Source of the DNA: Pyrinomonadaceae bacterium
GTDB lineage: Bacteria; Acidobacteriota; Blastocatellia; Pyrinomonadales; Pyrinomonadaceae
Assembly (NCBI GenBank): GCA_035275005.1
Contig: DATENQ010000564.1
Coordinates: forward strand, 1 to 61,524
Length of the DNA stretch: 61,524 nt
Direction: 5' to 3'
Under the pieces are notes generated by a model. The model was given only the letters and a program-made list of their open reading frames with translations. It had not been told where the DNA came from and did no database searches. Of this stretch, positions 25,154 to 41,433 are shown in pieces; within the stretch, counting starts at the first letter, position 1, and each line of letters starts with the position of its first letter. The translations under genes and the position numbers were made by a program.

Positions 25154-25198
25154 ACTCCCTACTTCCTCGTAGTCTAAAAAACAGTCTCGATCATTGCT

Positions 25199-25687: not shown

Positions 25688-25720
25688 GACTAACCTTCCT
25701 CTTAACTGTCGTTAACAACC

Positions 25721-27421
25721 TCAATCCGTGTTATGTAGACTGCCGGAAGCGACTTTCACCTTCCGCGATCCAACGAATTGACTCGCGAGCATCGCGGCAA
25801 CAATCGCAATCAGAATGAACTCCGGTGTAAACCAACCAGTGTTGGATTTTGCTGTGTCAGATCCGACCGTGAGTAGTGTTAGCCCAACCAGGAGCAGCGA
25901 TGCGATTCGAAGCGGAAGCTCACGGTGCTTGTCTTCACCTGTCACACTCGGAATGTCGGTGTAGGCCTTCATCTGGCCGGAGGCTAAATTGCTGAGAGCT
26001 TGCCATGCTCTAAGCGCGCCGTCCGTCATGAGACTACTACCCGAGCTGGCCCATGCAGCCATCGTGCTGTAGCTGAACACTGCACTCCGCGCATGCCACT
26101 TCAGATGGCGCTGGCAGATCAACTCGAGGTGCCGGCCGAGATCGAAATCCGGCGCAACGCGAGTGATTAATCCGTCAATAGCGATGGCTGAGCGGATGTA
26201 CTTGACTACGTCCCGTTCCGGATAGATGCCGGTCTCTCGAGAGAGCATGAGCATGTCAAGCATCACGAGCGTCGCGTTTTTCTTCAGCCGCCGTGAATTC
26301 CCGACAGTCTCGTACCACTGTTTATTCAATTGCCTCATTCCGTGGCGGAACCCCTCGACATCCGACTTTTCGTTAACCGTTGAAATCTTAAAAAAGGCAG
26401 CGCACATTGCTTCCAGATCGCCGCGTCCGAGCGCCATCGTCAGTGAGACGATGTTCTGTCGCGAGTAACGACTCAGCATTCCAGTAATGCCAAAATCCAC
26501 ATACCCGACAACACTGTCCGGCAGAATCATCAGGTTGGCTGGATGTAAATCGGCGTGAAACATGCCGAACCGGTATGCATCGCTGAGGAAATTCTCCAGA
26601 ATGTTGTAAACGAATTGATCCGGGTTGAATCCCTTAGCCTCTAACCTCTTGATAGTGAACTCGTCGCCTGTCTTTATCGCCCGAAGGTAGTCAAGCAAGT
26701 TCAAGCCGTCGATAAATTCGACTACCAATGTGCGGCGCGAAACGTAGTCAGCGAAAACTTTGGGAACACATTCGTGCGGATTTCCCCGCGCGATACGACG
26801 CTGTTGCTCCATGTAACGAGCCTCGCGCCGGTAGTCGAGTTCCTCACTGGTCCAGGTGACAAACTCGCTCGTTGGTTCGATCAACCAATAGAACATTTTT
26901 AAATGCAGGCGCCGGATGAGACGAATGAACGAATTCATCAAACGAATGTCGCCGTTGAAGTCTGTATCGACGTTGGGACGTTGAACTTTTACCGCCACCT
27001 TTTGACCGTGAAGTCGTGCAATGTGCACCTGACCAATGGAAGCGGTGGCGATAGGTTCGATCTCAATGTGATCAAAAATCTCGTGTGGTGATTTTCCAAA
27101 CTCTGTTACAAATGTCCGCTCGACATGAGCGAACGGAAAAGGTGCAACGCGGTCCAGGAGGTTGAAGAGAGCATTGCAGTATTCGACCGGAAGAATGTCT
27201 GGTTGAAGCGCCAGCATCTGGCCAAACTTAATGAATGTGCCGCCCATGTCTTCGACCATTGCGCGCAGACGCTCCGGTCCGGAAAGCTTAGTCACCGCTA
27301 AATGAGGCTCGAGTTTGGGCCAGCGATTGACGGCGAGCGTTAGCGCGTACGCCAGCACATGTCTGACGATCACTTTTACAAGATGCGCTAGTCGCCGAAT
27401 ACTGGAACCGAAGAACATCAA
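25721..27421 (-). CDS. ABC1/UbiB-family atypical kinase with C-terminal TM segments
   Basis: MGGTFIKFGQMLALQPDILP, ASIGQVHIARLHGQKVAVKVQRP, FHADLHPANLMI, VDFGITG. Start overlaps the upstream stop. Confidence 0.85.
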   Translation of the reverse strand: MMFFGSSIRRLAHLVKVIVRHVLAYALTLAVNRWPKLEPHLAVTKLSGPERLRAMVEDMGGTFIKFGQMLALQPDILPVEYCNALFNLLDRVAPFPFAHVERTFVTEFGKSPHEIFDHIEIEPIATASIGQVHIARLHGQKVAVKVQRPNVDTDFNGDIRLMNSFIRLIRRLHLKMFYWLIEPTSEFVTWTSEELDYRREARYMEQQRRIARGNPHECVPKVFADYVSRRTLVVEFIDGLNLLDYLRAIKTGDEFTIKRLEAKGFNPDQFVYNILENFLSDAYRFGMFHADLHPANLMILPDSVVGYVDFGITGMLSRYSRQNIVSLTMALGRGDLEAMCAAFFKISTVNEKSDVEGFRHGMRQLNKQWYETVGNSRRLKKNATLVMLDMLMLSRETGIYPERDVVKYIRSAIAIDGLITRVAPDFDLGRHLELICQRHLKWHARSAVFSYSTMAAWASSGSSLMTDGALRAWQALSNLASGQMKAYTDIPSVTGEDKHRELPLRIASLLLVGLTLLTVGSDTAKSNTGWFTPEFILIAIVAAMLASQFVGSRKVKVASGSLHNTD

Positions 27422-29043
27422 CTCGCCTCCTGCTCAAACACCGACCCGAAGAAAATCGACTTGCGCCGGCTGAGGATGCTTTCAATAGCTTCCTCCATCC
27501 TGCTTCTCACCTCTACGCTGATAGCGCGCACAGTTGCCGGATCAGCAGCCGCTTCGGGTGGGTACACATCTTTGATTTCGATCGGTGAGAGAAATTGCGT
27601 GTGCCACTTTGACGGCAGCGGCAGTGGTGACAGTGTCAACGGCAGACACGGCCACTCAGTCCGGCGCTTCCACCACTCCCACTCAAACTTTTTCACAATC
27701 GGAAGAATCTCGGCGCTTCCAATGGTGACGAAGGGAACGATGGGCGCCTGATGACGAAGTGCCATCTTCACGAAGTCGTTGCGCCCAAACTTTTGCAGGC
27801 GATACGCATCGCGGTAGAGTGAGAACGCACCTTTGATACCTTCGGGGAAGACACCTAACAACTCACCGCGATTGAGCATTCGATCGGCGTTGTCCTGACA
27901 AGCGATGACGCCACCCAGCTTAGTCAGGAAGTTAAAGCAGAACGGCATCTTTACAAGCCCCGGGGCCATCAGGAAGCGCGGGCAGCGACCGATGAGTCTA
28001 AATAGCTGTTGTATGAGCATGATGCCGTCCCATGGCATGAAGCCGCGATGCATCCCTACCAACACGGCAGGACCTTCGCGCGGGATCTGCTCAAGCCCCT
28101 TGAGCTCAATTCGCCAGTAGTAATGTTCAAGGAACTTGAAAACAGTTCGGCCCAGGGCTGAGACGTAGCGCGTATCCATTCCGAAATCGTCGAACTGCGT
28201 TTCAACATCCACCGGCAGATGATTTTTTGTGGCGACGCTAAATTCAGCCAACGCTGCCGCGCTCGAATGAGTTGGCTCGAATCCAAGTTGGTGTTTAATC
28301 TTTTCGTCCGAGACGCTCCACGAGTAGCGGATGTAATCGAGTTGTTCAACCGGATGGGCCAGCCGAAGAGGATTCATTACCGCGCGAGCCGGCCGCTGCA
28401 GAATGCGCGGCACGGGGAGACGTTTTACATGAGCGAGGCGTAAGGCTTTGCGCAGTGGTATCACGCTACGAGGGGCAACGTTAAAGACCCCCTCAGATCT
28501 TCGCTCAATGGCGCACTTCACCGCGTCTGCAAGATCGCCCGGACTGAGTAGTTGCAGCGAGGGTTCATGGCCTGGAAGCGTGATGGCTAAGCGACCTCGG
28601 AATAGGCGCGTGAAATAGTCTTCACTGCCATGCGCAAGCACCGCCGCGGGACGAAGGATCGCGAGAGCAACACCCTTACTCAATTGTTTCTCGGCAAGCT
28701 GCTCGAGCCTGGTCCATGCGCGGGCAATCCTGAACCTGTCTTCTTTCAACAGCGCACGCGTTTCGCGAATAAGACCAGGATTTTGCGGCGTGGCACCGTA
28801 AATTGCAGCGCTGGATATCAAAACGAATTGTTTGATGCCGGCGCACGCGCACTGCCGGAAGATTGCTTTTGCGTCTGCAAGATCAGGGACGTCTTCTCGG
28901 CGGGACAAGGGCGGTGAATAAACAACACAATCAACTGGTTCCCCATCGAACGATCGCAATTCGACAACATGGTTTTCACGCAAGCGCTCAACCAGCAACC
29001 TTGCTACTTCTGCTCGATGCTCGATAACAACGACTTTGCTCAT
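27418..29043 (-). CDS. fusion: epimerase/dehydratase-like (extended-SDR-like) N-domain + PlsC-type acyltransferase C-domain
   Basis: N-domain: FVLISSAAIYGATPQNPG. No obvious GxxGxxG. C-domain: VGMHRGFMPWDG (H..D block), FPEGIKGAF (FPEG block), APIVPFVTIGSAE. ATGA overlap with the upstream paralog. Confidence 0.65.
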   Translation of the reverse strand: MSKVVVIEHRAEVARLLVERLRENHVVELRSFDGEPVDCVVYSPPLSRREDVPDLADAKAIFRQCACAGIKQFVLISSAAIYGATPQNPGLIRETRALLKEDRFRIARAWTRLEQLAEKQLSKGVALAILRPAAVLAHGSEDYFTRLFRGRLAITLPGHEPSLQLLSPGDLADAVKCAIERRSEGVFNVAPRSVIPLRKALRLAHVKRLPVPRILQRPARAVMNPLRLAHPVEQLDYIRYSWSVSDEKIKHQLGFEPTHSSAAALAEFSVATKNHLPVDVETQFDDFGMDTRYVSALGRTVFKFLEHYYWRIELKGLEQIPREGPAVLVGMHRGFMPWDGIMLIQQLFRLIGRCPRFLMAPGLVKMPFCFNFLTKLGGVIACQDNADRMLNRGELLGVFPEGIKGAFSLYRDAYRLQKFGRNDFVKMALRHQAPIVPFVTIGSAEILPIVKKFEWEWWKRRTEWPCLPLTLSPLPLPSKWHTQFLSPIEIKDVYPPEAAADPATVRAISVEVRSRMEEAIESILSRRKSIFFGSVFEQEAS

Positions 29044-30815
29044 CTGTTACCAACTCTCACTCGGGAAGGTAGTTGTCTTCCATAACCCATATCCTGATGG
29101 CTCCGTTCGTCGTCGAAAATAGATCCGAAAAAGATCGACTTACGCCGGCGCAGCATCTCCGCAATCGCTTGTTCCATCCGGCTCCTGACTTCCTGGCTGA
29201 TTGCGCTCACCACTTGCGCGTCGTCCGCGGCTTCGGGCGGGAAACGGTCTTCGATGTGCAACGGCTCCAGGAATTGCGTGTGCCATTTCGAAGGCAGCGG
29301 AATCGCCCCCAGGAAGGGCCAGGTCGGCGTGATCGGAAACGTGGGCCACTCGGTGTTGCGCTTCCACCAGGCCCAGTTGACTTTTTTGAGTATCGGAAAA
29401 ATCTCCGCACTGCCGACTGTCACAAAAGGAACTATCGGCGCGCGATGGCGCAGCGCGATCTTGACGAATTCGTCACGACCAAACTTCGTCAGCTTGTAAG
29501 CATCACGATAAGGCAGGAACGCGCCTTTGATGCCTTCCGGAAAGATCCCAACGATCTCGTCGCGCTTGAGCACAAAGTCCGCATTCTCCTGACAGGCGAT
29601 GACGCCGCCGAGCTTCGTATGAAAGTTGAAGAGAAATGGAAACTTGATCAGTCCGGGATGAATTAGAAACCTGACATAGCGGCCAACATTTCGAACAATG
29701 AGATGAAGCGCCATGACCGCATCCCACGGCATGAAACCCCGATGCACGCCAACCAGGACCGCGCGTCCCTCACGCGGCAGGTAATGAAGATCTTTGACCT
29801 CGACACGCCAGTAATAGTCGTGCAGAAACTTAAACATCCGTCGGCCATAGAGCTCGATATACCGCTGGTCCATTCCGTAATCATCGAATTCCAGCGACGG
29901 CAATCGATGTGACTTGAGATGACCGGCTTCCGCGATGCGAAAGTCTCGCAATGCTTCAACACTGGAGCGACATGGCGCCCACTTCAGCTCACGTTTAATC
30001 TTCCGATTGGAGATGGTCCAGGAATAACGTATGTAGTCCAACTGTTCGATCGGATGCGCTAAACCCAAATGAGTCAGCGAACGGCGCGCGATTCGCTGGA
30101 CCGTGCGCGATACCGGCAACCGTTTTGCTTCGCTGAGTCGCAGGGCGGCACGCAGAGTAATCACTCCATCGGGCGCTACGTTGAAAACTCCGCCGGCCCG
30201 GTTCGCGACCACGGTACATATCGCGCCGGCGAGATCGATCGGGCTGAGCAATTGAATGGTCGGATCGTGGCCCGGCAACGCGAAAACAAATCTTTGTCTG
30301 TAGAGATCACTGAAATAGTCATCGCCTCCGACTACCAGTACAGCGGCAGCGCGCAGGATATTCAGCTCGATGTTCATGCCGGAGAGTTCGCCCAAATAGG
30401 CGGCTGCGAGCGCTTCGAGATCGAGCCAGTCTCTGGTTATTCGTTTCTTGTCGCTGCGCGGGATAACGTGTGCTTCAGAAATGAAACCGGGATTGTGAGG
30501 GCTGGCTCCATAGATCATCGCGCTCGACAAAAGAACAAACTTCCTGATGCCCGCGCGAGCGCATTGCTGAAAAACCGACTCCGCGTCTTCCAGATCGAGA
30601 CGGCGGCGATTGCGGCCCGGCGGTGGAGCGTAGACGACAGTATCGATTTCATGTTCCTGTAGCATCGTCGACAGACCACCGCTCAAGTGACCACCGAAGC
30701 CGTCTTCTTTCTGCGGTGCACGCACGCAAAACTCGACCAATTTACGGTGGCGAAGATTGCTCACGATCAATTCCGCCACAGTTTCTCGATCTTCGATCAC
30801 GATGACTCTTGCCAT
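29040..30815 (-). CDS. fusion: epimerase/dehydratase-like N-domain + PlsC-type acyltransferase C-domain (paralog)
   Basis: Collinear with the 27418 gene: FVLLSSAMIYGASPHNPG, VGVHRGFMPWDA, FPEGIKGAF, APIVPFVTVGSAE. Confidence 0.65.
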   Translation of the reverse strand: MARVIVIEDRETVAELIVSNLRHRKLVEFCVRAPQKEDGFGGHLSGGLSTMLQEHEIDTVVYAPPPGRNRRRLDLEDAESVFQQCARAGIRKFVLLSSAMIYGASPHNPGFISEAHVIPRSDKKRITRDWLDLEALAAAYLGELSGMNIELNILRAAAVLVVGGDDYFSDLYRQRFVFALPGHDPTIQLLSPIDLAGAICTVVANRAGGVFNVAPDGVITLRAALRLSEAKRLPVSRTVQRIARRSLTHLGLAHPIEQLDYIRYSWTISNRKIKRELKWAPCRSSVEALRDFRIAEAGHLKSHRLPSLEFDDYGMDQRYIELYGRRMFKFLHDYYWRVEVKDLHYLPREGRAVLVGVHRGFMPWDAVMALHLIVRNVGRYVRFLIHPGLIKFPFLFNFHTKLGGVIACQENADFVLKRDEIVGIFPEGIKGAFLPYRDAYKLTKFGRDEFVKIALRHRAPIVPFVTVGSAEIFPILKKVNWAWWKRNTEWPTFPITPTWPFLGAIPLPSKWHTQFLEPLHIEDRFPPEAADDAQVVSAISQEVRSRMEQAIAEMLRRRKSIFFGSIFDDERSHQDMGYGRQLPSRVRVGNR

Positions 30816-30851: not shown

Positions 30852-31529
30852 CTACCGCGTTGCGGTACTGACCCGATCCCCTGTCGACAACTGCTTGGCG
30901 GGGCGCGGAAGATCTAAAACTTGAAACTCTTTCCCTTCCGTAATGCGAATCAGGTGACGAGCTCCGATAGCCTGGTCCCCATCCTTTGTGAACTTTTCGA
31001 TCCTGCCTTTGGGCCAATGCACTGTCACAACATCAACCTGCGTCTTATCGCCGAGACCAAAATAAAGACGCGCACTCTGTTGCGACGCGAACCCCGAGCC
31101 CGCAGAAACGAGTCGTGTGAATTTTTGCCCGCCCGCTTCGACCGTTACCGACGCTCCGACCGCGTCACGATTGCTTTCGGTCCCGCGTAACTCGATGGCG
31201 AGCCAGTTGCGACGTTCACCTACGTTGTTGCGAAGCAACGTCGCTCGCGAGAGTTCGGCGCGGCCGGAGTCGCCGGGATTGTTGTTGATGACGACGTCCA
31301 GGTCGCCATCGTTGTCGAAATCGGCAGTTGCCGTCCCGCGCGCATCGCGTATGTCGTCTGCGCCTGTGGCCATCGCCACGTCCGTGAATTGCAGCTTGCC
31401 ATCCGGTGCTGGTCCTTCGTTACGCAGCAGCACGTTGTGCTCATAACCGTTCCAGGAAATGTCGCCGCGAAATTCGTCCCGATAAAACTTGCCCGTCTTG
31501 TAATCGTTAATGTGCGCGACCGCGCTCAA
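30852..31529 (-). CDS. CRTAC1-family protein 2, segment downstream of the in-frame TGA (last FG-GAP repeat + UnbV/ASPIC domain)
   Basis: Same frame as 31542..33389; the open frame actually runs from 31541. DFDNDGDLDVVINN, WLAIELRGTESNRDAVGASVTVEAGG, SGFASQQSARLYFGLG. The TTG at 31529 is only the track's first start-like codon. Confidence 0.7.
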   Translation of the reverse strand: MSAVAHINDYKTGKFYRDEFRGDISWNGYEHNVLLRNEGPAPDGKLQFTDVAMATGADDIRDARGTATADFDNDGDLDVVINNNPGDSGRAELSRATLLRNNVGERRNWLAIELRGTESNRDAVGASVTVEAGGQKFTRLVSAGSGFASQQSARLYFGLGDKTQVDVVTVHWPKGRIEKFTKDGDQAIGARHLIRITEGKEFQVLDLPRPAKQLSTGDRVSTATR

Positions 31530-31544
31530 GATGTAGGGCAGTCA
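31511..31544 (-). other. in-frame UGA (31544-31542) plus downstream hairpin GCGC-GGUC-GCGC: candidate SECIS/recoding signal
   Basis: Minus strand reads GAT CTT TGA CTG CCC TAC ATC TTG AGC GCG GTC GCG CAC ATT. The core stem GCGC/GCGC with a GGUC loop lies at +20..+31 and can be extended by G18-C33 and U17-A34. Confidence 0.45.
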
Positions 31545-33389
31545 AAGATCCTGTGTGCTCTTGGAAGTGATCCAGCCGTTAGAGGCGTAGATATCCTGAT
31601 AACCATCGTTGTCGTAATCAAACATCGTCGAGCCCCAGTACCAGCCAAACGGATTGGTGCTCGTCGCCTCCGAGACGTCTGTGAACCTTCCCTTCCCGTC
31701 ATTCAGATAAAGCGCGTTGCCTTTTACTGTTCTATCTCCATAGGTGCTCCAGTCAGTGCCAACATGGTTGTAGATCTCCTTGTAGACAGGAAAGTCTTCG
31801 AGGATCGTTCTCTGGCGTACACTCGTCACGAGATACTTGTGAAGCGTCGCCGCCTGGCCATACCAACGCTGGCCCGAATGAACGTCGGAGACGTACATGT
31901 CCAGATCGCCGTCGTTGTCGATGTCGCCCCAGGTCGCGCTCATGCCATAGCCCGGATCGAAAGCGTTCGCTTCTTTGGACACGTCGGTGAAAGTGCCGTT
32001 GCCGTTATTTCGCAAGAGTGCGTCGCGCCCGAAGTCGTTGGCGACATACATGTCGAGATCCCCGTCGTTGTCGTAGTCACCCCACGCGACACCGAGCGTG
32101 AGACCGGTTTCGTTAATTCCCGCTTCCTTCGTGACGTCCGTGAAATGAAAGTTTCCGTCGTTGCGAAACAGACGGTTGCCTTCGCCGTTGCGCGTGTAGA
32201 AGAGCGTCGTGGGAAGATGCTTGCGCGGATCCAGGTAACGCCCGGTGTAGAGATCGAGATCGCCGTCGTTGTCGTAATCGGCCGCGGCGGCGACAACAAC
32301 GAAATCACCGTCACCGTGTTTGACGATTCCCGAGGAGTCAGTAACTTCGACGAACTTGCGGCGGGATGGCTGCTGAGGATCGGCAGGCACGTTCTTGAAG
32401 ACGCGGCTTCTATCAGTGAAGCAGCCGAAGTAGGCGTCTTTGTACCCGTCGTTGTCGAAGTCTGCAAAGATGCCGACATTGACGCCCGCCATTTTTTCCG
32501 GCAGACCCGCTTCGACGGTTGCATCCACGAAAGAGCCGTCACCACGGTTGCGATAGAGACGCGGTTGCGCGCCATCCGCGAAGAAGATGTCGTACCAGCC
32601 ATCGTTATCGTAATCGACCGCCGAGACTCCCGCCGGGCCATACTTGATGATCTCGAATGTCTTTGGCTTCCATGCAGGCGTGAAGAAATTCGGATTGAAG
32701 CGTGAGGCGAAATCGATACCGGCGCTCGAGTTGGCGCCGTCCGGTTCCGTCGCGTAGAAACTCGATCGTCCCCAGAGATCCGTGAACCCGCGGCGATCGC
32801 CTGTAACAGTTGTTCCGCGAATCAACTCCTGCCGGTGAATCTTCCAACTATTGCCATAGGCGCGCAGCCACATGCGGAAGAGCACCTGTGTTTCAAATGC
32901 TTCTTTGCTCTTGCCGTCGCTCGTGGTACGTGTGCCACGCAACCAAAGAAACGAGCGAATGATCGCGTCTCGATCGCTGTCAATTTGTTCGACTGAGTCG
33001 AGTTTGAGTTTTGCCTCGTCGACTGTGCTTATTGTCTTGAAGTAGCGATCAACCTCGTCCGCCATCTCGCGCTTGTTGGTAGTTCTCTCGACCGCTGGTT
33101 TCCACTTGTAAACGCGCACACCGTCGCGCTCAGACTGAAGCTGCTCTTCAGAAAATCCCTCATGGACTCCCGAGTAGTTGTCGTCATAACAGGAGAGGAC
33201 TTGTGCAACGTCAAATTTCTCTACGCCGGTGCGATACTCACTCAGAACCTTCTGCGCCGCCTGACCCAGTTGAGCGAGCTGCTGCGCATTCGCCTCAATC
33301 TGGTCGAGCTTCAGCTTGGCCATCAGGATAAGTATTAACAGCACAATCAGCGGTGAGCTGTAGAACACTCGTTTTTGTCTCTTCGACAT
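31542..33389 (-). CDS. CRTAC1-family protein 2, segment upstream of the in-frame TGA (TM anchor, NTF2-like domain, FG-GAP/VCBS repeats)
   Basis: RBS AGGAGAG. TM helix LIVLLILILMA. Repeats DYDNDGWYDIFF, DFDNDGYKDAYF, DYDNDGDLDLYT, DYDNDGDLDMYVAN, DIDNDGDLDMYVS, DYDNDGYQDIYAS. Ends ..GWITSKSTQDL-TGA. Confidence 0.8.
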   Translation of the reverse strand: MSKRQKRVFYSSPLIVLLILILMAKLKLDQIEANAQQLAQLGQAAQKVLSEYRTGVEKFDVAQVLSCYDDNYSGVHEGFSEEQLQSERDGVRVYKWKPAVERTTNKREMADEVDRYFKTISTVDEAKLKLDSVEQIDSDRDAIIRSFLWLRGTRTTSDGKSKEAFETQVLFRMWLRAYGNSWKIHRQELIRGTTVTGDRRGFTDLWGRSSFYATEPDGANSSAGIDFASRFNPNFFTPAWKPKTFEIIKYGPAGVSAVDYDNDGWYDIFFADGAQPRLYRNRGDGSFVDATVEAGLPEKMAGVNVGIFADFDNDGYKDAYFGCFTDRSRVFKNVPADPQQPSRRKFVEVTDSSGIVKHGDGDFVVVAAAADYDNDGDLDLYTGRYLDPRKHLPTTLFYTRNGEGNRLFRNDGNFHFTDVTKEAGINETGLTLGVAWGDYDNDGDLDMYVANDFGRDALLRNNGNGTFTDVSKEANAFDPGYGMSATWGDIDNDGDLDMYVSDVHSGQRWYGQAATLHKYLVTSVRQRTILEDFPVYKEIYNHVGTDWSTYGDRTVKGNALYLNDGKGRFTDVSEATSTNPFGWYWGSTMFDYDNDGYQDIYASNGWITSKSTQDL

Positions 33390-33402
33390 AAAACTCTCCT
33401 AT

Positions 33403-33444
33403 CCGCAGATCATCTCTGTGTAATCTGTGTAATCTGTGGATCAC
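33403..33444. repeat. REP-like imperfect palindrome of the gtaatc(t/c)g(t/c)gg family
   Basis: ccgcagatcatctctgtgtaatctgtgtaatctgtggatcac. Arms are ccgcagat / atctgtgg, with tandem ctgtgtaat units. It encodes the last residues (..PQITQITQR) and the stop of the CRTAC1-3 gene. Confidence 0.6.
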
Positions 33445-34015
33445 CTTCCTCGATGCGCACCTGCCGGCTGCCTTTCATCACGTTTGTAAGCTCCTGCCCT
33501 TCGAGGTGCTGCACGCGTCCACTCGGCCAGCGGATCTCAATCGCGTCGACGTGGTCCGCTTTCCCGAGGCCAAAGTGAAGCGGCAACATCATCTCTGACG
33601 CATAACCTGAGCCTGCTTCGACTTGCCGCATCATCTTTTTCCCTCCAGCCGTGAGCCATACGCAGGCGCCGATCGCATCGCGATTGCTTTCGGTCCCAAC
33701 CAATTTCAACTCAACCGAACTGCCTACTTTCTTCAGATTGTTCATATAAAGCACCGGCGTTTCGTTGTTGGCATTCATGACCAGGTCCAACCGCCCGTCG
33801 TTGTTGAAGTCGGCCACTGCAACACCACGGCCGTCCTTCACACTGTCAGAACCCGTTGGCCGCGCAATATCGATGAACTGCCCATCCCCGACATTCGCAA
33901 AGAGACACTTGTGCTCGTAACCGTTCCAGGAGTTCTCACCAACAAACTCGTGACTGAAGAAGAACCCCTGCTTGTACTTGTCAATGTGCGCGACCGCGCC
34001 CGATGTAAACGGGAG
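33410..34015 (-). CDS. CRTAC1-family protein 3, segment downstream of the in-frame TGA (last FG-GAP repeat + UnbV/ASPIC domain)
   Basis: The frame is open and continuous from 34015. The track ORF 33410..33841 is only its part after the first GTG. LPFTSGAVAHIDKYKQGFFFSHEFVGENSWNGYEH.., DFNNDGRLDLVMNAN, VELKLVGTESNRDAIGACVWLTAGG, SGYASEMMLPLHFGLG. Confidence 0.7.
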   Translation of the reverse strand, partial: LPFTSGAVAHIDKYKQGFFFSHEFVGENSWNGYEHKCLFANVGDGQFIDIARPTGSDSVKDGRGVAVADFNNDGRLDLVMNANNETPVLYMNNLKKVGSSVELKLVGTESNRDAIGACVWLTAGGKKMMRQVEAGSGYASEMMLPLHFGLGKADHVDAIEIRWPSGRVQHLEGQELTNVMKGSRQVRIEEGDPQITQITQR

Positions 34016-34018
34016 TCA
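33985..34018 (-). other. in-frame UGA (34018-34016) plus downstream hairpin GCGC-GGUC-GCGC: candidate SECIS/recoding signal
   Basis: Minus strand reads GAA GAT CTT TGA CTC CCG TTT ACA TCG GGC GCG GTC GCG CAC ATT. The 17 nt GCGCGGTCGCGCACATT sit at the same offset as in the paralog. Confidence 0.45.
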
Positions 34019-35848
34019 AAGATCTTCCTTGTTCTTGTTTGTGATCCACCCATTCGCGGCATAGATGTCGAGATCCGTGTCGTTGTCGGCATCGAAGAAA
34101 GCGACACTCCAGCCCCAGCCCGCGCGGGCTGTGTGGCTGTCTTTCAACTCGCGAAACGTGCCGTCGCCGTTGTTCTTGAAGAGTGAGTTTCCTTCGCCGA
34201 TGGTGGTGCCGATCGACATCCACTCAGAGCCCACCAGGTTATAGAATTTTCTGTATTCGAACATATCGAGAACTATCCAGCGCGTGCGTGCAACGTTGCG
34301 CATGTATTGGCTGACGGTCATGTCTTCGCCAAACCAGCGCTGGTTTGAGTTGATGTTCGAGGTGTAGAGATCGATCAGTCCGTCGTCGTCGAAATCGCCG
34401 AAGGTCAGGCCCATGCCGCCGCTGAAGTCGAGCACGCCTGCTTGCTTCGCTACATCAGTGAACGTTCCGTCACCGTTGTTGCGAAAGAGACACTTGCGTC
34501 CGAAGTCGTTTGCGACAGCAATATCCGGATAGCCGTCGCCGTCGTAATCGGCGGAAGCAACCGCGAGGGCCCAACCTGTGTCTCCTATGCCGCTGGACGC
34601 AGTTACATCGCGGAAGCCTTGTCCATGCTCGTTGTGATAGAGGCGATTGGGCTGCGCGTTTTGCGCGAAGAAAGGAAGGCGCGGAACCTCCGCGAAAGCA
34701 TTGCCGTAAAGACCGATGTAAAGATCGACGTAGCCGTCGCGATCGTAATCAAGAAAACAGGCGGTGACGCTGGTCGAGTTGAAATCAAGCCCCATCTCCT
34801 TTGATTGATCGACGAACTTACCGCCGTCGTTTCGGTAGAACTTGTTTGGCGCGAGGTAGCGAGCGACGAAGAGGTCGTCGTCGCCGTCGTTGTCTATATC
34901 GGCAAAGATGCCGGCGTTGGCTTGGTCGATCCCTTCAAGACCGGCTTCAGCCGTGACATCAATAAATTTGACTTCGCCGGAACCATCGCTCACGTTCCGG
35001 TAAAGACGCGAACGTACGCCGTCTGGGAAGAAGATGTCCTGACGACCATCGTTGTTGTAATCGACCGCGCTTGCTCCGCCAGAGCCGTGTTCGATGATGT
35101 CAAACTTCATCTTCGCTGAATATTTTTCAGCGTCGAGTTTTGGATCGCGTGAGTGTTTGAAGTCGATCCCTGCGGCTGCGAGATTCACTTCTTTGAAGCT
35201 GCCGCCGTCACCAGCGACGCGCAGGCCCTCGAGGGCGCCGTTGGTTTGGACTAGCTCGTCTTTAACGATCTTCCAATCAAAGGCCGGGGGCTTCGCCTCG
35301 TTAACTAGTTGCCAGCGATAGAAGTAGCGGTCCTGAAAAACTGCTCCGTGCGGATCTTTGCCGTCGAGTATGAACTTGACGCGCAGCACCACACTCTTTT
35401 CAAGATCGACACTCTCGATCATGTCGATCTTCGTCCAGATGTTATCGATCGATGCGATGCTGGCCAGGTAGTTGACAACTTCGCCGCGCACAGCTTGTTT
35501 GTCCATGTCCTGCTTGCCGTTGATTACGACTCTGGAAACCGAGACATCGCTCTCATCCTTCGCCGATCCCAACTCCCAACGCCCGCGGCCGGGTGACCAG
35601 AAGCGATCTGAATACAGACTCATCACCGCCGCCGGATCCTTTTTCTCGAAGCTCTCCCGGATCGCGCGCGTGTAATTTCCGAGAAACACATTGACTGCTT
35701 TTCCCGTGTTGAAGAACCTCGCATGCTCTTTGTCGCGGCGGCCCATGAGATAGAGCGTTGCCGCAATCACGGATACGGCGATAACGAGCAGAACGATGGT
35801 TAGCTTCGCCAGCGTTTTGAGGAGTCGTTTTTTATTCGTGCCGTTCAT
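34016..35848 (-). CDS. CRTAC1-family protein 3, segment upstream of the in-frame TGA (TM anchor, NTF2-like domain, FG-GAP/VCBS repeats)
   Basis: ATG at 35848 overlaps the desaturase TAA (TAATG). TM helix LTIVLLVIAVSVIAATLYL. Repeats DYNNDGRQDIFF, DIDNDGDDDLFV, DYDRDGYVDLYI, DYDGDGYPDIAVAN, DFDDDGLIDLYTS, DADNDTDLDIYAAN. Ends ..GWITNKNKEDL-TGA. Confidence 0.8.
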   Translation of the reverse strand: MNGTNKKRLLKTLAKLTIVLLVIAVSVIAATLYLMGRRDKEHARFFNTGKAVNVFLGNYTRAIRESFEKKDPAAVMSLYSDRFWSPGRGRWELGSAKDESDVSVSRVVINGKQDMDKQAVRGEVVNYLASIASIDNIWTKIDMIESVDLEKSVVLRVKFILDGKDPHGAVFQDRYFYRWQLVNEAKPPAFDWKIVKDELVQTNGALEGLRVAGDGGSFKEVNLAAAGIDFKHSRDPKLDAEKYSAKMKFDIIEHGSGGASAVDYNNDGRQDIFFPDGVRSRLYRNVSDGSGEVKFIDVTAEAGLEGIDQANAGIFADIDNDGDDDLFVARYLAPNKFYRNDGGKFVDQSKEMGLDFNSTSVTACFLDYDRDGYVDLYIGLYGNAFAEVPRLPFFAQNAQPNRLYHNEHGQGFRDVTASSGIGDTGWALAVASADYDGDGYPDIAVANDFGRKCLFRNNGDGTFTDVAKQAGVLDFSGGMGLTFGDFDDDGLIDLYTSNINSNQRWFGEDMTVSQYMRNVARTRWIVLDMFEYRKFYNLVGSEWMSIGTTIGEGNSLFKNNGDGTFRELKDSHTARAGWGWSVAFFDADNDTDLDIYAANGWITNKNKEDL

Positions 35849-37389
35849 TACAATTCCAAAAACACGCCGCGGATATTCGCGGACTTCAGCCACGGATTAA
35901 CACTGATACTGTTGCTGAACTCTGACCGCCGGCCGGTTATCTTCCCAGCCACCCGCATCGCAGAAACAATGACCGGCGTGATGCCGCCGCCGGGTTGTGT
36001 CCAATGGCCCACGAAATACAAATTCTTCAACATCCCATTCAGCGCCGGACGGTTGGCGCCAAGTTGATCGGGCGACATCTCCCAGCCAAGCATCGCGCCC
36101 CTGTGGTTCAACGTGAACCGGTGCGACGTCAACGCTGAAGCACTCAGCTTGACGACCACTTTCTCCGTGAAGCCCGGCATCACACGCTCGAGGTTTTTCA
36201 TGATGTAGGCTTCGACTTTCGCTTTGTGCGCGGCCCAGTCGTCGATCGATTCGTAATCAATGTCGGTCAGCTTCTGCACGATAACGATGTGTCCACCCGC
36301 CGGAGCCATCGCCGGTTCGTACAACGTCGGCACAAAGATCTTGAACGAGTTAGTCGCGACTCGATCTGAATCCCATGAATCCCAGTGATAACCATGCGCG
36401 GCGCGCAACACTTCAGTCTCAATTCCCTTCAGACCGACATGGACCAGAAAACACGGATGCGTTGGACGTAACCCACGAATGGAGGCAACTCGATCGCGAT
36501 CGATGTGGTCTCGCTCGATTAACCGGTCGAGTGTCAACAGTAAATCGGCATTCGAAATGACCACGCCGGCACTGACGTGATGCCTCTGCTGAGTGCTTAT
36601 CTCTACGCCACACGCGCTCTTGTTTCTGACGACGATGCGATTGACTTTCGCGCTCGTCAGGATGTGGCCGCCAAGTTCTTCGAAGCGAAGTGCCAGCTCG
36701 TCGGCAAAAGCCTGTGATCCACCACGCGGGTAGTAATTGCCCAGGAAGTAGGAGAGCCTGAGCATGGAATCGAAGACGAATGAAGTGCGGGACGGCGGAG
36801 ATCCCCAGTGGCCGCAATCGGCGGCGAGCAGGAGCTTAAGTTTCGGATCGCGGAAGTGCTGGTCCAGTGCCTCACGCACCGTTGTCTGTGAGTACTGATC
36901 GAGCCGATCTGTTTCGCGCCAGCGGAAGTAGGTGAGCAACCCTGATAAATAGACTTCGCGCACCAGCATGAAAAACTGATCCAGGCTTTCGGCTTCCTGT
37001 GGAAATTCCTGCTTCAGTTTGCTGAGATAAGTATCGAAGTCGGCAGGCACTGCGAACGTGGAACCATCGGGGAAATGAAAATGATCGACCGGATCCATCT
37101 TCACCCACCCGTTAGTTACACCGAGCTCGCGCAACAACTTTCCGGTAATCGTCGCCGGATTCCCAAGCAAGGGGTAAAAGTGCGTTGCAGCGTCGAACGT
37201 AAAGCCTTTGCGCCGGAACGTGCTGCAATAACCACCGACCATGTAGTGCTGTTCGACCAGCAACACCCGCAGTTGTTCACGCGCCAACAGGTTTGCGCAG
37301 ATCAGCCCACCGATGCCGGCGCCGATAATCACGGCATCGTAAGACGCCTCGGGCGAATGGCCGCGCAATCCTTTGAAAAGCCTCTTCAT
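35848..37389 (-). CDS. phytoene-desaturase-family (CrtI/CrtD-like) FAD-dependent oxidoreductase
   Basis: YDAVIIGAGIGGLICANLLAREQLRVLLVEQHYMVGGYCSTF dinucleotide fold. C-terminal LYFVGHWTQPGGGI. ATGA overlap with the upstream gene. Confidence 0.75.
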   Translation of the reverse strand: MKRLFKGLRGHSPEASYDAVIIGAGIGGLICANLLAREQLRVLLVEQHYMVGGYCSTFRRKGFTFDAATHFYPLLGNPATITGKLLRELGVTNGWVKMDPVDHFHFPDGSTFAVPADFDTYLSKLKQEFPQEAESLDQFFMLVREVYLSGLLTYFRWRETDRLDQYSQTTVREALDQHFRDPKLKLLLAADCGHWGSPPSRTSFVFDSMLRLSYFLGNYYPRGGSQAFADELALRFEELGGHILTSAKVNRIVVRNKSACGVEISTQQRHHVSAGVVISNADLLLTLDRLIERDHIDRDRVASIRGLRPTHPCFLVHVGLKGIETEVLRAAHGYHWDSWDSDRVATNSFKIFVPTLYEPAMAPAGGHIVIVQKLTDIDYESIDDWAAHKAKVEAYIMKNLERVMPGFTEKVVVKLSASALTSHRFTLNHRGAMLGWEMSPDQLGANRPALNGMLKNLYFVGHWTQPGGGITPVIVSAMRVAGKITGRRSEFSNSISVNPWLKSANIRGVFLEL

Positions 37390-38597
37390 AACGCGCTCAA
37401 CCCTGGTCTATTCCGGCCATACGTTTCATGTGCAGCCACAAACTCCCCGCTCGCGATCGCCGCACCCATGGAAAGCTCACCCGCGAGCAGTGTGGCGCAA
37501 ATGATTTCGGCGAATTTGCCTGCCTTGCCTTTACCTGCACACCCCAGAATCTCGAGACATTCGCGGCTGGTCCCCAAAGCAGTACCGCCACCCACAGTCG
37601 CGACTGTCAGCGATGGCAGCGTCACACTCGCGTAAAGATCTCCGTTCTGGTCCAACTCGAAATTCGTAACGCCCACTGAAGAATTCACGATATTGGCAAC
37701 GTCCTGGCCGCAGGCAATAAAGATTGCCGCCAGCCCGTTGGCGAATTGGCCGTTGTATCCGATAGCGTTGGCCTGCAAGTGGCCCAGCATCGTGTGTTGT
37801 CGCATCTGCAACAGGTCCTCAGGCGTGACGTGTAGGTACGACTTGACGATGTGTCGCGGCAGCAGCGCGCCTGCTGTCACTTTCTTGCCTTTGCCGCCGG
37901 CGAGCAGCGATCCACTCGCTCGTTTTTCCGAGCTGAAGCCGCTGAAGACGTAGAAGTGAAGAGCGCCGGAATGATCCATGATCCATTTGCACGCCTGCTC
38001 AGTGGCCTTAACGATCATGTTCATCCCCTGCGCATCGCCGGTGAAGTAACAGAAGTTAACGATCACTTCTCTTCCGATCGGGTGACACTCGATCCGCTGT
38101 AGCTTGCCGTGATGCGTGGTGGATTCAGCCTCGGCGCGAATCGAATCGAAACTGTCTGCAAGAGTGATAGCAAACTCATGCGCCCGAGCGACGTTTTCGA
38201 AGAGAAACACTGGGGAGACGCGATTCTCGTCTACGTGAACGCGAGTTGTGACACCGCCTGCGCGCGTCAGTGCGACCATGCCACGCTCATACGAGCGGAC
38301 CAGCGCGCCTTCAGTCGTTGCCAGAGGAACATAAAAAAAGCCCCGCGCATCCGAACCGTTGATCAGCAATGGGCCCGCGACGCCGAGCGGCATTTGGGCT
38401 GTACCAACAGGGTTTTCAATATTGCCGCGCATCTCATCGCCCGGTATCGAATGTGCGCCAACATGGACCAACCGGCAGCCGGTTTTCTGTTCCAGCCATT
38501 GACGCCGCCGTTGGACGTAAGGCTGCGCGTAGCCCTGTTGCTTCATCCGGGGCACCAGGGACAACGCAACCTCACTTATGTTTTGTTCAGTTCTCAT
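37386..38597 (-). CDS. HMG-CoA reductase-family protein
   Basis: ENPVGTAQMPLGVAGPLLING, VPLATTEGALVRSYERG, GDAQGMNM, ATVGGGT, AAHETYGRNR. ATG at 38597 overlaps the upstream TAA (TAATG). No other mevalonate-pathway gene is in the window. Confidence 0.75.
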   Translation of the reverse strand: MRTEQNISEVALSLVPRMKQQGYAQPYVQRRRQWLEQKTGCRLVHVGAHSIPGDEMRGNIENPVGTAQMPLGVAGPLLINGSDARGFFYVPLATTEGALVRSYERGMVALTRAGGVTTRVHVDENRVSPVFLFENVARAHEFAITLADSFDSIRAEAESTTHHGKLQRIECHPIGREVIVNFCYFTGDAQGMNMIVKATEQACKWIMDHSGALHFYVFSGFSSEKRASGSLLAGGKGKKVTAGALLPRHIVKSYLHVTPEDLLQMRQHTMLGHLQANAIGYNGQFANGLAAIFIACGQDVANIVNSSVGVTNFELDQNGDLYASVTLPSLTVATVGGGTALGTSRECLEILGCAGKGKAGKFAEIICATLLAGELSMGAAIASGEFVAAHETYGRNRPGLSAL

Positions 38598-39844
38598 TAC
38601 ACTCTTGCCAGCACGAGCGAACAGCAATGACCGTCAAAACCGACTGAATTAATCAGCGCGGTTTCCAGATCGATTTTCGTGTTGTCAGGACTAATCACGT
38701 CGAATGCGAGGTCGTCATCAACTTGCTCGAGACCGTTGATGCCTGGCAGTACTCCGTCGCGCATCGTTTCCAGCAATGCAATGGCCTGCATTGGACCAGA
38801 AGCACCGAGTGTTTCCCCAAGCATTGACTTGATGGCTGTTACTGGAAGTTTGCGAGTCTGCCCGTTCAGGCCGGCGAAGACACCCTTCGCTTCATGCCGG
38901 TCGCCGGCCTGACTGCCGCTGGCAGACGCACTGATACAGTCGATCTCGTGAGGACCAGTGAAGGCATCGTTGATCGCATGTCGAACCGAAAGGGCGATTG
39001 AATTTATCGCCGACTTCTCGTCCTCGCCCTGCGACCAGTCATAACCGCAGCCGTGACCAGTAATCTCCGCGAGCGGGTGCGCGCCTCTTTCTCGTGCGAA
39101 GTGAGCGTCTTCAAGCATTAACAGAGCGGCGCCTTCACCAAGCGCGAACCCGTTGCGTCTCTTGTCAAATGGAATCGGAAAATCTCCGGCGCTGTGCTCC
39201 GATCGGCACAACAGTCCCGCACGGTCGAAGCCGTAGAACGACTCGAAACACATTTCATCAGCACCGCCGGCGAGGATGGCGCGAGCGCGACCGCTGCGAA
39301 TCACTTCAGTCGCATAAGCAATCGCTTGCAGTCCCGAGGTTATGCCCGTTGAAATGGTCGAATTGATGCCGCGCAGGTTGTGGATGATGGCGGTTTGACC
39401 GGCAGCGGCGTTGATCACCGTGTTGGAAAAGTCCATAGGGCTCGCATAGGCTGGTCCAAATTCAAGCGCGCGGCGGTCAAATTCCGAGATGGTATGCACA
39501 CTACAGAACATCGTCCCGAGCACTAACCCGACTTCTTCCTGATTCAGGATCGAGCCGGACCAGCCGCTATCGTTCAGCGCCAGTTGCGCCGCGGAAGCAA
39601 CGAGTCGTGAGGTGCGGTCCAGCGGGCGCAGGTTTCTCCGGCCGAGATATGTCTTCGCGTCGAAGGAAGAGATCTCTCCGCCCAGCGGACAGCCAAGACC
39701 CGCCGTGCTGAAGAGCTCGACGGGTTTGACTGCACGGCGTCCGGAACAGAGGGAGAGCTGTAAGCTGCTGGAAGAATCGCCCAGCGAAGAGACAACACCC
39801 GCGCCAGTAATGACAACTCTGTTTCTCATCAGTTTAGAGTTCAT
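38597..39844 (-). CDS. beta-ketoacyl synthase-like protein lacking the Cys-His-His triad (chain-length-factor / KS-beta type)
   Basis: Thiolase/KS fold (RVVITGAGVVSSLG, AILAGGADE, GFDGHCCSLVL). The active-site positions read STGITSG (Cys->Ile), SASASGSQAGD (His->Ser) and KSMLGETLGASG (His->Glu). ATG at 39829 is an alternative start. Confidence 0.7.
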   Translation of the reverse strand: MNSKLMRNRVVITGAGVVSSLGDSSSSLQLSLCSGRRAVKPVELFSTAGLGCPLGGEISSFDAKTYLGRRNLRPLDRTSRLVASAAQLALNDSGWSGSILNQEEVGLVLGTMFCSVHTISEFDRRALEFGPAYASPMDFSNTVINAAAGQTAIIHNLRGINSTISTGITSGLQAIAYATEVIRSGRARAILAGGADEMCFESFYGFDRAGLLCRSEHSAGDFPIPFDKRRNGFALGEGAALLMLEDAHFARERGAHPLAEITGHGCGYDWSQGEDEKSAINSIALSVRHAINDAFTGPHEIDCISASASGSQAGDRHEAKGVFAGLNGQTRKLPVTAIKSMLGETLGASGPMQAIALLETMRDGVLPGINGLEQVDDDLAFDVISPDNTKIDLETALINSVGFDGHCCSLVLARV

Positions 39845-41060
39845 ACTTTCTGAGAATCAGCGAAGCGTTGTTGCCGCCAAACGCGTAAGCATTGTTCATG
39901 GCAACGCGTACCGTGTGCTCGCGCGCGTGGTTGGCAACGTAGTCCAGATCACACTCAGGATCCGGCTCTTTCAAATTTATTGTCGGGGGAATGCGATCGT
40001 GATAAATCGCAAGTGCGCAAGCGGCAGCTTCGATTGCCGACGCCGCACCCATCGTGTGACCGAGCATGGATTTGATCGAACTGATGGGTACGCGGTAAGC
40101 CACATCGCCAAACAGTTGTTTGACGGCTAACGTTTCCAGGCGATCGTTTGTCGGCGTTCCGGTGCCGTGCGCACTGATGTAACCGACCTCTTCCCGATCG
40201 GTTCCACTCTGTTCGAGGGCCTGCTTCATGGCGCGCATGGCCCCTTCGCCGTTTGGGTGTGCGGCTGTCATGTGATGTGCATCGCACGACAAGCCATAAC
40301 CGGCAATCTCCGCGTAAATTCGCGCGCCACGTCGCGTCGCGGAAGACAGCGGCTCGAGCACAAGCACGCCTGCGCCTTCGCCCGGAATCATTCCCTTCCG
40401 GTATCGATCGAATGGCTGGCAGACTTCGGGCGCGATCGCTCCCAGTTGAGCGAACCCCGTGTAGGTGATACGAGAAAAAGAATCCGAGCCACCCGCCAGC
40501 ATTAGACTGGCACGACCGGCTCGCAACACGTCGAATGCGTGGGCGATTGCGTAATTTCCTGCGGCACAAGCTGTCGGGATCATGATGTTTATGCCGCCGA
40601 ACTGCAGTTCACGCGCGATGTGCGCGGCGATGACGTGGCTCGGATAGAGCGCCAGAAACTCCGGCCCAACGCGCTCCAGATTCTTGCTGACAAACAAGTC
40701 GTCAAAACGTTCTACCTCGCGTGGCTCACCTGAGGTCGTTCCCATTGAAACTCCAGCCCGCTCGAGATCAAGGGAAGCAATTTCCACGTTCGCGTCCGCC
40801 AGCGCTAAACGGGCGGCGGCGATTGCAAATTGCGATGCACGTCCCAGGTGAGCCGCGTCGAGATTCGAAAGGTAATTCTCTGCTTCAAAGTCATGCACTT
40901 CAGCGCCGCGATGAACGCTGTAAGCACTGGTGTCGAAAGACCTGACCGGACCAATTCCGGAGCGACCTTCGAGCAGATTGGTCCAGAAGCGCTCGCGACC
41001 GGTACCGATCGGAGTGACGACACCGATACCTGTAACAACCACGCGAGAGTGTTTCATCAC
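39834..41060 (-). CDS. beta-ketoacyl-ACP synthase II-like (active KS)
   Basis: RVVVTGIGVVTPIG, active-site PTACAAGNYAI, SAHGTGTPTNDRLE, KSMLGHTMGAASA, AFGGNNASLIL. ATGA overlap with the ACP gene. Confidence 0.85.
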   Translation of the reverse strand: MMKHSRVVVTGIGVVTPIGTGRERFWTNLLEGRSGIGPVRSFDTSAYSVHRGAEVHDFEAENYLSNLDAAHLGRASQFAIAAARLALADANVEIASLDLERAGVSMGTTSGEPREVERFDDLFVSKNLERVGPEFLALYPSHVIAAHIARELQFGGINIMIPTACAAGNYAIAHAFDVLRAGRASLMLAGGSDSFSRITYTGFAQLGAIAPEVCQPFDRYRKGMIPGEGAGVLVLEPLSSATRRGARIYAEIAGYGLSCDAHHMTAAHPNGEGAMRAMKQALEQSGTDREEVGYISAHGTGTPTNDRLETLAVKQLFGDVAYRVPISSIKSMLGHTMGAASAIEAAACALAIYHDRIPPTINLKEPDPECDLDYVANHAREHTVRVAMNNAYAFGGNNASLILRKYEL

Positions 41061-41311
41061 GCCACCGCCAACTCGAGGTGTTGCTGGACGACTCTCACCG
41101 TATCGTTCACGGTGCGAATCTCCGACAGAACTTCGTCGGGAATCTTGACTTGAAACTGGTACTCGGCATCCACGGCTATTTCCAAAATGGTGAGCGAGTC
41201 GAGTTGCAGGTCGTCCTTGTACGACGCTGTGTCGGTGATTTCTTCGGGACTCAAGCTGGTGATCGTGGCGATCGACTTTTTGATCCTCGCCCTGATCTCT
41301 TCCGTGCTCAT
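41057..41311 (-). CDS. acyl carrier protein
   Basis: AGGAG lies 7 nt upstream of ATG at 41311. Phosphopantetheine site DLQLDSLTILEI. 84 aa. Confidence 0.85.
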   Translation of the reverse strand: MSTEEIRARIKKSIATITSLSPEEITDTASYKDDLQLDSLTILEIAVDAEYQFQVKIPDEVLSEIRTVNDTVRVVQQHLELAVA

Positions 41312-41433
41312 CGTTTTATCTCCTGTCGCGAGATGGTATGTATTTCGCACTTGAGTGGGACGCCCGTCTATCGGGACGATGGGAAAGGATTCTCAAGGAA
41401 CTCCATGAGTGGTAGGGGAATTCCCTGATTAGC

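Follow-up and report, generated by a model that had tools for sequence, protein, structure and literature searches.

On the minus strand of a 61,524-nucleotide (nt) stretch of a 79-kb metagenome contig from a Pyrinomonadaceae bacterium (DATENQ010000564.1, positions 1 to 61,524; hereafter the window) lie two tandem genes, each interrupted by one in-frame UGA codon that we propose to read as selenocysteine (Sec). Gene A (30852..33389, including its terminal stop) encodes, when read through, a CRTAC1-like protein of 845 amino acids (aa), and its orthologues are interrupted at the same codon. The proposed Sec codon of gene A occupies 31542..31544. Gene B (33410..35848) is a paralogous CRTAC1-like gene of 812 aa read through, with its proposed Sec codon at 34016..34018. 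The two codons are homologous and both stand in the context UGA-C. Downstream of each lies an element resembling a selenocysteine insertion sequence (SECIS). That of gene A (31509..31525) consists of a GCGC/GCGC stem with a GGUC loop at 31514-31525 (+20..+31, the U of UGA being 1), followed by ACAUU; that of gene B (33983..33999) carries the stem-loop GCGC-GGUC-GCGC at 33988-33999. All six features read on the minus strand.

How well do the first gene models for this pair hold up? A first-pass annotation of the window had claimed that a single TGA interrupts each gene within one reading frame, and this is what we see at both codons. Its estimate of about 830-845 aa for the read-through products holds for gene A but not for gene B. 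For the latter it had proposed a GTG start at 35893; the most likely start is instead the ATG at 35848, which shares a base with the TAA that ends the upstream CrtI-like gene (TAATG, 35846..35850) and yields the 812 aa. The two downstream open reading frames (ORFs) that it listed, 30852..31529 and 33410..33841, are not genuine but products of mechanical start-codon calling; the protein is conserved from the codon immediately after the TGA. Read through, each gene encodes 5-6 FG-GAP_3 repeats and a C-terminal UnbV_ASPIC domain (PF13517 at 3.6e-47 and 7.9e-47, PF07593 at 1.9e-17 and 7.9e-20). That part of the proposed layout is thus found in both proteins, but the transmembrane (TM) anchor and the NTF2-like domain are backed by the model of a homologue with cysteine at the site, not by the window proteins themselves. 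The paralogues had been called strongly diverged, and at 38% protein identity they are. Around the site both proteins nevertheless keep the context that had been pointed out, NGWIT(S/N)K..(Q/E)DL-TGA-LP(Y/F)..(S/G)AVAHI..YK.G.F..EF.G..SWNGYEH.

TGA had been held not to be reassigned in this DNA, rightly so. It ends 14 of the 43 window ORFs, TAA ending 17 and TAG 12. The genetic code is the standard one, and TGA is an ordinary terminator in the window. Only one of the 14 genuine terminal TGAs has C as its next base.

Is the interruption peculiar to this contig? An independent assembly, from a second sample, contains the same gene, interrupted in the same way. To this can be added a set of about 160 related loci (1.3 Mb in all), 74 of them from species-representative genomes, 80 metagenomic and a few retrieved by exact look-up. 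Inspection of the homologous codon by tblastn across this set found TGA at 206 sites, and TAA, TAG and TGG at none. Conserved TGA junctions number 202 in 134 loci, most of which carry tandem paralogues with a TGA in each. The UGA is followed by C at 203 of the 206 sites, because the next codon is Leu, always CTN and never TTR. Protein searches give the same picture from the other side. The best 120 matches of read-through gene A run from 96% down to 57% identity, and almost all of them span the first 73% of the query only, ending at the same codon; the best 120 matches of the part after the TGA are all separate fragments of about 190-260 aa, annotated as 'CRTAC1 family protein' or 'enediyne biosynthesis protein E4'.

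By their labels, the carriers within the Acidobacteriota belong to the Pyrinomonadaceae, Blastocatellia, Thermoanaerobaculia and Bryobacterales; others are labelled Planctomycetota (Singulisphaera, Pirellula), Verrucomicrobiales/Limisphaerales/Pedosphaera, Poribacteria and Latescibacterota. Two of the loci, L022 (CAZPQE01, 'uncultured Clostridia bacterium') and L023 (Poribacteria), contain both paralogues, 67-68% identical to the Pyrinomonadaceae genes and with the same hairpin. The Clostridia label of L022 looks like an error of binning or taxonomy. To obtain a marker of the Sec trait within the same genomes, we also searched the related loci for a second family with a recurrent in-frame TGA; none was found, the only candidates being out-of-frame shadows of conserved genes.

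If the UGA interrupts the gene so regularly, is the part behind it still translated? To address this we compared 60 orthologues with gene A. The median ratio of nonsynonymous to synonymous substitution rates (dN/dS) is 0.06 in the 600 nt before the TGA and 0.13 in the 600 nt after it. The calculation on either side of the TGA had been named as a check, with neutral evolution of the downstream segments as a ground for rejection; a median of 0.13 instead signifies purifying selection there as well. In the related loci the part after the TGA always follows directly, in frame and free of further stops, and no conserved start codon is present behind the UGA. The first possible start in gene B comes 58 codons past the TGA, and the codons between are among the best conserved. 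By these measures the part after the UGA is translated and under purifying selection.

What follows the UGA? As had been noticed, the two genes have an identical stretch of 17 nt, GCGCGGTCGCGCACATT, at +20..+36 (31509-31525 in gene A, 33983-33999 in gene B). Its 12-mer core, GCGCGGTCGCGC, occurs at two places only in the window, the two sites themselves, against a chance expectation of 0.03, and the 36-nt pattern from the TGA through the end of the common 17-mer has exactly two occurrences. Bases 20-23 pair with 28-31, leaving 24-27 as the loop. Statistics on this hairpin were gathered from 187 unique TGA sites with full context. The 12-mer is GCGCGGTCGCGC at 128 of these, GTGCGGTCGCAC at 36, GCGCGGTAGCGC at 5, GTGCGGTAGCAT and CCGCGGTCGCGG at 4 each, GGGCGGTCGCCC at 2, and ATGCGGTCGCAT and GCGTAGTTACGC at one each; the rarer stems are CCGC..GCGG (4 sites), GGGC..GCCC (2) and ATGC..GCAT (1). 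The loop is GGUC at 171 sites, and G-U stands at loop positions 2-3 at 185. Beyond the 4-bp core, the lower stem varies by lineage.

The second pair of the stem is the most instructive. It joins the third base of a Ser/Gly codon to the third base of the second Ala codon, both of them synonymous positions. The pair is C-G at 141 sites, U-A at 41 and G-C at 4; the single mismatch belongs to a gene with the hairpin in a shifted register, so that Watson-Crick pairing is kept at 186 of 187. On a tree of the flanking protein sequence, built by the unweighted pair group method with arithmetic mean (UPGMA), this pair has undergone at least 12 changes, none of which leaves a mismatch. RNAalifold, given an 81-sequence alignment, predicts exactly this 4-bp helix. 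When alignment columns were shuffled, none of 500 shuffles came up to the real alignment in covariation score or in double changes (counted on the helix plus two extra outer pairs), and the signal is lost when the 3' arm is slid by 1-3 columns.

Codon choice within the hairpin is similarly restricted. The Ala codon at +7 is GCG in 181 of 185 cases (98%, against a background of 38%) and the Val codon at +8 is GTC in 171 of 185 (92%, against 41%). For the second hairpin Ala, GCG or GCA is used and almost never GCC, which has a background of 41%. At codon +11, just outside the hairpin, ATT, ATC and ATA are used freely. These alignments show a hairpin under RNA-level constraint, with covariation, and they bear out the fold put forward for the 17-mer, a GCGC/GCGC stem closed by a GGUC loop.

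Which residue do relatives place at the UGA column? That column had been singled out for inspection in orthologues, and it holds TGA again at 206 of 206 Sec-type sites, Cys in a close subclade and Trp never. A Cys codon, TGC, appears in one genome locus, L073, from a metagenome-assembled genome (MAG) of the Arenicellales, whose close relatives L070 and L075 have TGA. A search with the L073 product returned eight full-length clusters (P0390-P0397; 143 member sequences), all with Cys at the exact column (...HDL-C-LDFAR...). Their proteins are 807-832 aa long, except for one partial sequence of 670 aa, and 60-98% identical. Clusters P0398-P0401, 86-88% identical to the Cys-form query, end at ...HDL. 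Sec forms of this marine subclade have hairpins of their own, either UUGGGC-UGGAC-GCCCAA (loop +26..30) or GGAUGC-GGUC-GCAUCC. The two Cys-form genes examined as DNA, L073 and L161, are without a hairpin; such loss is the expected behaviour of a SECIS.

Further afield, at about 40% identity, the column is invariably Glu in 74 clusters of full-length relatives (TEI-E-L(D/E)F). A search of representative proteins with the C-terminal part returned mostly multi-repeat FG-GAP proteins, together with two useful full-length relatives of the Glu type. The only full-length relative with Gly is P0099 (JGI 3300047160, on a 10-kb contig), in the context DDH-G-LPF; a GGA codon for that Gly would be one step from TGA. 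Since Cys, Glu and Sec are each conserved by subfamily, we conclude that the Sec column, judged by its conservation, is functionally constrained in every subfamily.

Where does this column lie in the protein? To answer this, we used an AlphaFold model of the Cys-form homologue P0390, built from an 81-sequence alignment (predicted local distance difference test score, pLDDT, 88.3; predicted template modelling score, pTM, 0.87). The model begins with a helix at the N-terminus, continues through an alpha+beta domain and a beta-propeller that has two helical inserts, and ends in a beta domain. The propeller is a single continuous one, with repeats from both sides of the site. Foldseek gives murine CRTAC1 as the best match in the PDB (9etn_A, E 6.7e-26, TM-score 0.71 when normalised to the target) and matches the N-terminal domain to NTF2-like enzymes, namely Aln2, LinA and bile-acid 7-alpha-dehydratase. 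Cys580 of P0390 is the first residue of the helix 580-589, immediately after the strand 574-578, a place where the local pLDDT drops to 64-74. The Sec-bearing insert gives no sequence alignment with murine CRTAC1. By this model, Sec would stand at the start of an alpha-helix, within an insert that is specific to the subfamily and lies between propeller blades. A positively charged N-terminus ahead of the TM helix, together with DxDxDG repeats of the calcium type, leads us to place the proteins of genes A and B probably outside the cytoplasm.

Taken together, these observations make it very probable that genes A and B encode selenoproteins, by selenocysteine recoding of UGA. The products would be full-length, membrane-anchored and probably extracytoplasmic proteins of the CRTAC1 type, composed of an NTF2-like domain, an FG-GAP propeller and UnbV/ASPIC. 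Their in-frame UGA would be decoded as Sec by the normal bacterial route. The hairpin within the coding sequence, with its 4-bp G+C stem, GGUC loop and variable lower stem, would be the SECIS and would tether SelB-GTP-Sec-tRNA(Sec) to the ribosome, while the UGA-C context would weaken RF2. We infer SelB binding and selenium incorporation at both genes. The Sec residue would be functional, as nucleophile, redox centre or ligand, since it starts a helix in a subfamily-specific insert and the nearest non-Sec subfamily has an invariant Glu in its place. The secreted TlpA-like reductase encoded nearby could plausibly serve as its redox partner and might reduce the oxidised Sec. More speculatively, the enzyme might act on a lipid or polyketide-like product of the operon in which it is encoded.

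Several observations count against a selenoprotein interpretation. Neither tblastn with E. coli SelA, SelB and SelD nor a search for tRNA genes with ARAGORN found selA, selB, selD or any tRNA gene, whether in the window itself or in the related loci with their 1.3 Mb, an absence that shows only that the sel machinery is not linked to the locus. Cys forms are rare, about one Cys cluster per 25 TGA sites, and the other non-Sec relatives have Glu or Gly, which is atypical for selenoproteins. There is no conserved partner Cys, nor a UxxC or CxxU motif. Folding of single sequences gives z-scores of -1.4 to +0.4 only, and the structure of minimum free energy (MFE) sometimes lacks the conserved hairpin; of the folding and covariation tests that had been suggested, the covariation across orthologues is positive but single-sequence folding is unremarkable. 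The case for the hairpin rests on comparative evidence for that reason. Finally, Rfam gave no match at the gathering score, and no SECIS family even at E <= 10 on 31400-34100. This last result does not lower the mechanistic claim, because many bacterial SECIS elements are unlike each other and unlike those of E. coli (PMC13188914).

Could the UGA simply be a stop? All public annotations do call two ORFs, and one might imagine two polypeptides, a propeller and an UnbV/ASPIC part, that assemble later, with the hairpin serving mRNA stability or translational coupling. Over 206 sites, however, the codon is TGA only, always in frame and with zero variation in spacing. No conserved start or Shine-Dalgarno sequence lies downstream, and in gene B the 58 codons before the first possible start are conserved. 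Moreover, the homologues with Cys, Glu or Gly are single uninterrupted chains, and in the P0390 model blades from both sides form one propeller. We regard true termination as highly improbable. Pseudogenes, or an error of sequencing or assembly, have in their favour the presence of a stop codon and nothing more. The same TGA recurs in about 140 loci that were assembled independently of one another, at 206 sites in all, and the second assembly of the gene itself is among them. Before and after the site alike, the sequence is under purifying selection; decaying pseudogenes, as the first-pass annotation had argued, would not look like this. With a probability that we put close to nil, we treat this explanation as ruled out by the 206 sites, the second assembly and the dN/dS values. 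The rejection of split gene, pseudogene and artefact alike follows from the conserved in-frame downstream part, the full-length homologues with a sense codon and the continuous propeller.

If the UGA is read, must it be read as Sec? A leaky UGA-C could be read through by a near-cognate tRNA, that for Trp, with the hairpin stimulating the event or pausing the ribosome; the site would then hold Trp or some other standard amino acid. This would suit the C that follows the UGA at 203 of 206 sites, the small and thermodynamically modest hairpin, and the failure to find Sec machinery in the window or the related loci. Against it, Trp occurs in no homologue, the only one-step replacements by a standard codon being Cys (eight clusters) and Gly (one protein). 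The GGUC loop, with its G-U in 185 of 187 at a distance like that in fdhF, is specific to a SECIS of the SelB type, and the hairpin is lost in Cys forms. Programmed read-through thus seems to us very unlikely. A subtler possibility accepts the SECIS and changes the amino acid. selC-like tRNA(Cys) species and allo-tRNAs with a UCA anticodon have been reported in metagenomes, and Cys might be inserted by such a tRNA(Cys) with a SelB-like factor, or some other residue by an allo-tRNA. Sequence cannot tell which amino acid a SECIS-programmed UGA receives, and Cys is functionally acceptable at the column. Such systems are rare, though, while the canonical Sec system is widespread and selenoproteins are known in Acidobacteria. 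For a Cys product TGC or TGT would be far cheaper, yet in several phyla TGA has been kept, outnumbering Cys by about 25 to 1. That the SECIS directs the insertion of some other residue accordingly has very little probability in our estimation.

In what setting do the two selenoprotein candidates occur? Upstream lies an operon (35848..41350, minus strand) of an acyl carrier protein (ACP; 41057..41350), two ketoacyl synthases (KS), an enzyme resembling hydroxymethylglutaryl-coenzyme A (HMG-CoA) reductase (HMGR) and a flavin adenine dinucleotide (FAD) enzyme of the CrtI/phytoene-desaturase family. These genes are present in 20-21 of the 21 large related loci (each of at least 16 kb). Downstream (24617..30815, minus strand) are two PlsC/DAGAT-like acyltransferases, an ABC1 kinase, a 162-aa protein and a secreted TlpA-like thiol:disulfide oxidoreductase with the motif WCQPC (24617..25153, minus strand); in 20 of the 21, the TlpA-like gene lies no more than 10 kb from the proposed selenoprotein genes. 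The order, all in one direction, is ACP, KS, KS, HMGR-like, CrtI-family, gene B, gene A, two acyltransferases and ABC1 kinase, and then the 162-aa protein, the TlpA-like WCxPC redoxin and a second ABC1 kinase. Nearly all genes of the cluster recur in 19-21 of the 21 loci. Like the pair at the TAATG junction, several further genes of the row share a few bases with their neighbours. The arrangement suggests one translationally coupled operon.

The HMGR-like gene (37386..38627, minus strand) is of class I and stands in the ACP/KS/KS cluster, not in a mevalonate operon. It falls below the equivalog cut-off, with 340 against 442 bits, and its enzyme may be one that forms an alcohol by reducing an acyl thioester. 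Taken as a unit, the cluster has the look of a lipid or polyketide pathway not yet described. In the marine metagenome contigs L158-L161, Sec and Cys forms alike have an extra C-terminal TM helix and adjoin a fatty-acid desaturase; close to the Sec form there are, in addition, genes for an MMPL transporter, a sulfotransferase, a GH3-type adenylating enzyme and a Rieske/PaO oxygenase. The marine neighbourhood differs from that of the window and is again lipid-flavoured.

Elsewhere in the window a second TlpA/ResA-like thiol:disulfide oxidoreductase, secreted or a lipoprotein and with the motif WCIPC, is encoded at 43878..44426 (minus strand). A third gene of the CRTAC1 family (4514..6847, minus strand) encodes 777 aa with FG-GAP_3 and UnbV_ASPIC; it has no in-frame stop and lacks the Sec-bearing insert. 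We considered it as a guide to the Sec column and set it aside as too divergent. It adjoins genes for an RPE65-type carotenoid oxygenase (6863..8320), a protein resembling FAD halogenases and geranylgeranyl (GG)-reductases (8313..10106) and a patatin (10110..11324). At 16068..19544 (minus strand) lies an 1158-aa fusion of unusual architecture, in which a GMC oxidoreductase (choline-dehydrogenase-like) is joined to a complete thiamine-diphosphate enzyme (NF006203, 553 bits). This fusion was not found in the related loci.

What would such a family mean? We think it likely that the two genes represent a large and unrecognised family of CRTAC1-propeller selenoproteins, the first of this fold and probably extracytoplasmic, in which Sec is nearly fixed where the sister subfamily has an invariant Glu, which occurs, usually as two tandem paralogues, across soil Acidobacteriota (Pyrinomonadaceae/Blastocatellia, Thermoanaerobaculia), Planctomycetota, Verrucomicrobiota and marine lineages, and which is set in an ACP-KS-KS-HMGR-like-desaturase-acyltransferase operon. 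If this is true, selenium is tied to an uncharacterised pathway for a membrane lipid or polyketide in some of the most abundant soil bacteria, and Pyrinomonadaceae and other abundant soil Acidobacteriota would need selenium for a conserved lipid or polyketide-type operon. Selenoproteins have been described in Acidobacteria in published work; for Pyrinomonadaceae we found nothing in the published literature. The family would also supply a concrete candidate for an active-site residue, Sec or Cys at a defined site with Glu in the sister subfamily, for CRTAC1/ASPIC/UnbV proteins in general, those of vertebrates and the enediyne 'E4' proteins included. A practical consequence concerns annotation. 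NCBI and JGI annotate the halves separately; hundreds of public MAG records split the gene in two, a 'VCBS repeat-containing protein' and a 'CRTAC1 family protein', and could be repaired with a family model that includes Sec. In classical searches for selenoproteins, a candidate needs two or more Cys homologues, and TGA/Cys pairs have to exceed 50%. The family may have been overlooked because such searches require Cys homologues, which are scarce here. This would be a blind spot of searches that look for abundant Cys homologues or thioredoxin-like motifs, neither of which the CRTAC1-like family offers.

How does the hairpin compare with known SECIS elements? The bacterial model (PMC13188914, summarising Zhang and Gladyshev) allows 3-9 nt for the loop and 4-16 bp for the upper stem, places a G at loop position 1 or 2, mostly with G or U after it, sets the loop 16-37 nt from the UGA, and asks for an MFE of -7.5 kcal/mol or lower. 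With a loop of 4 nt, a stem of 4 bp and a spacing of 20 nt (20-22 with the marine variants included), the CRTAC1-like hairpin lies within the limits for loop, stem and spacing, and it agrees in its G positions as well. The 48-nt segments reach -9.3 to -11.1 kcal/mol, with structures that differ between sequences. The core 4-bp hairpin alone has -5.1 to -6.6 kcal/mol, so that the whole segments lie below the energy limit and the core lies above it; the marine variants have -8.2 and -8.3.

In the K-12 record of E. coli fdhF, Sec codon 140 is UGA-C and a GGUC loop starts at +22, so the GGUC loop that the first-pass annotation had given for fdhF is correct. The fdhF and CRTAC1-like genes share UGA-C, a hairpin in the coding region directly downstream and an apical GGUC; their loops start at +22 and +24, respectively. 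The 17-nt minimal element of fdhF has -4.2 kcal/mol, and the minimal upper hairpin of the CRTAC1-like genes is comparable or lower at -5.1 to -6.6 kcal/mol. The protein is unrelated to that of fdhF, and, unlike in fdhF, the hairpin, a predicted SECIS, is without an evident bulged U and has a pure G-C upper stem of 4 bp above a lower stem that changes from lineage to lineage.

Among described selenoproteins we find no counterpart of this fold, in keeping with the earlier statement that none was known. None of the 119 prokaryotic selenoprotein families and subfamilies catalogued in May 2026 is of the CRTAC1 type, no model in NCBIfam release 20 matches the protein of genes A and B, and full-text searches of the literature yielded no paper linking selenoproteins with FG-GAP, VCBS, ASPIC/UnbV or CRTAC1. 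The recoding mechanism itself is already known; what is new is the CRTAC1-like family, its fold, the near-fixation of Sec and the genomic setting. With the catalogued families it has in common one Sec per protein, a Sec/Cys pair and a bacterial SECIS right after the UGA. It differs from them in a fold that is not thioredoxin-like, in the lack of UxxC or CxxU, and in Sec forms that heavily outnumber Cys forms. Within the CRTAC1/ASPIC/UnbV family, murine 9etn and the enediyne 'E4' UnbV proteins share with it the FG-GAP/VCBS repeats and UnbV_ASPIC; unlike murine CRTAC1, this subfamily has an N-terminal TM anchor, an NTF2-like domain and the helical insert that would carry Sec.

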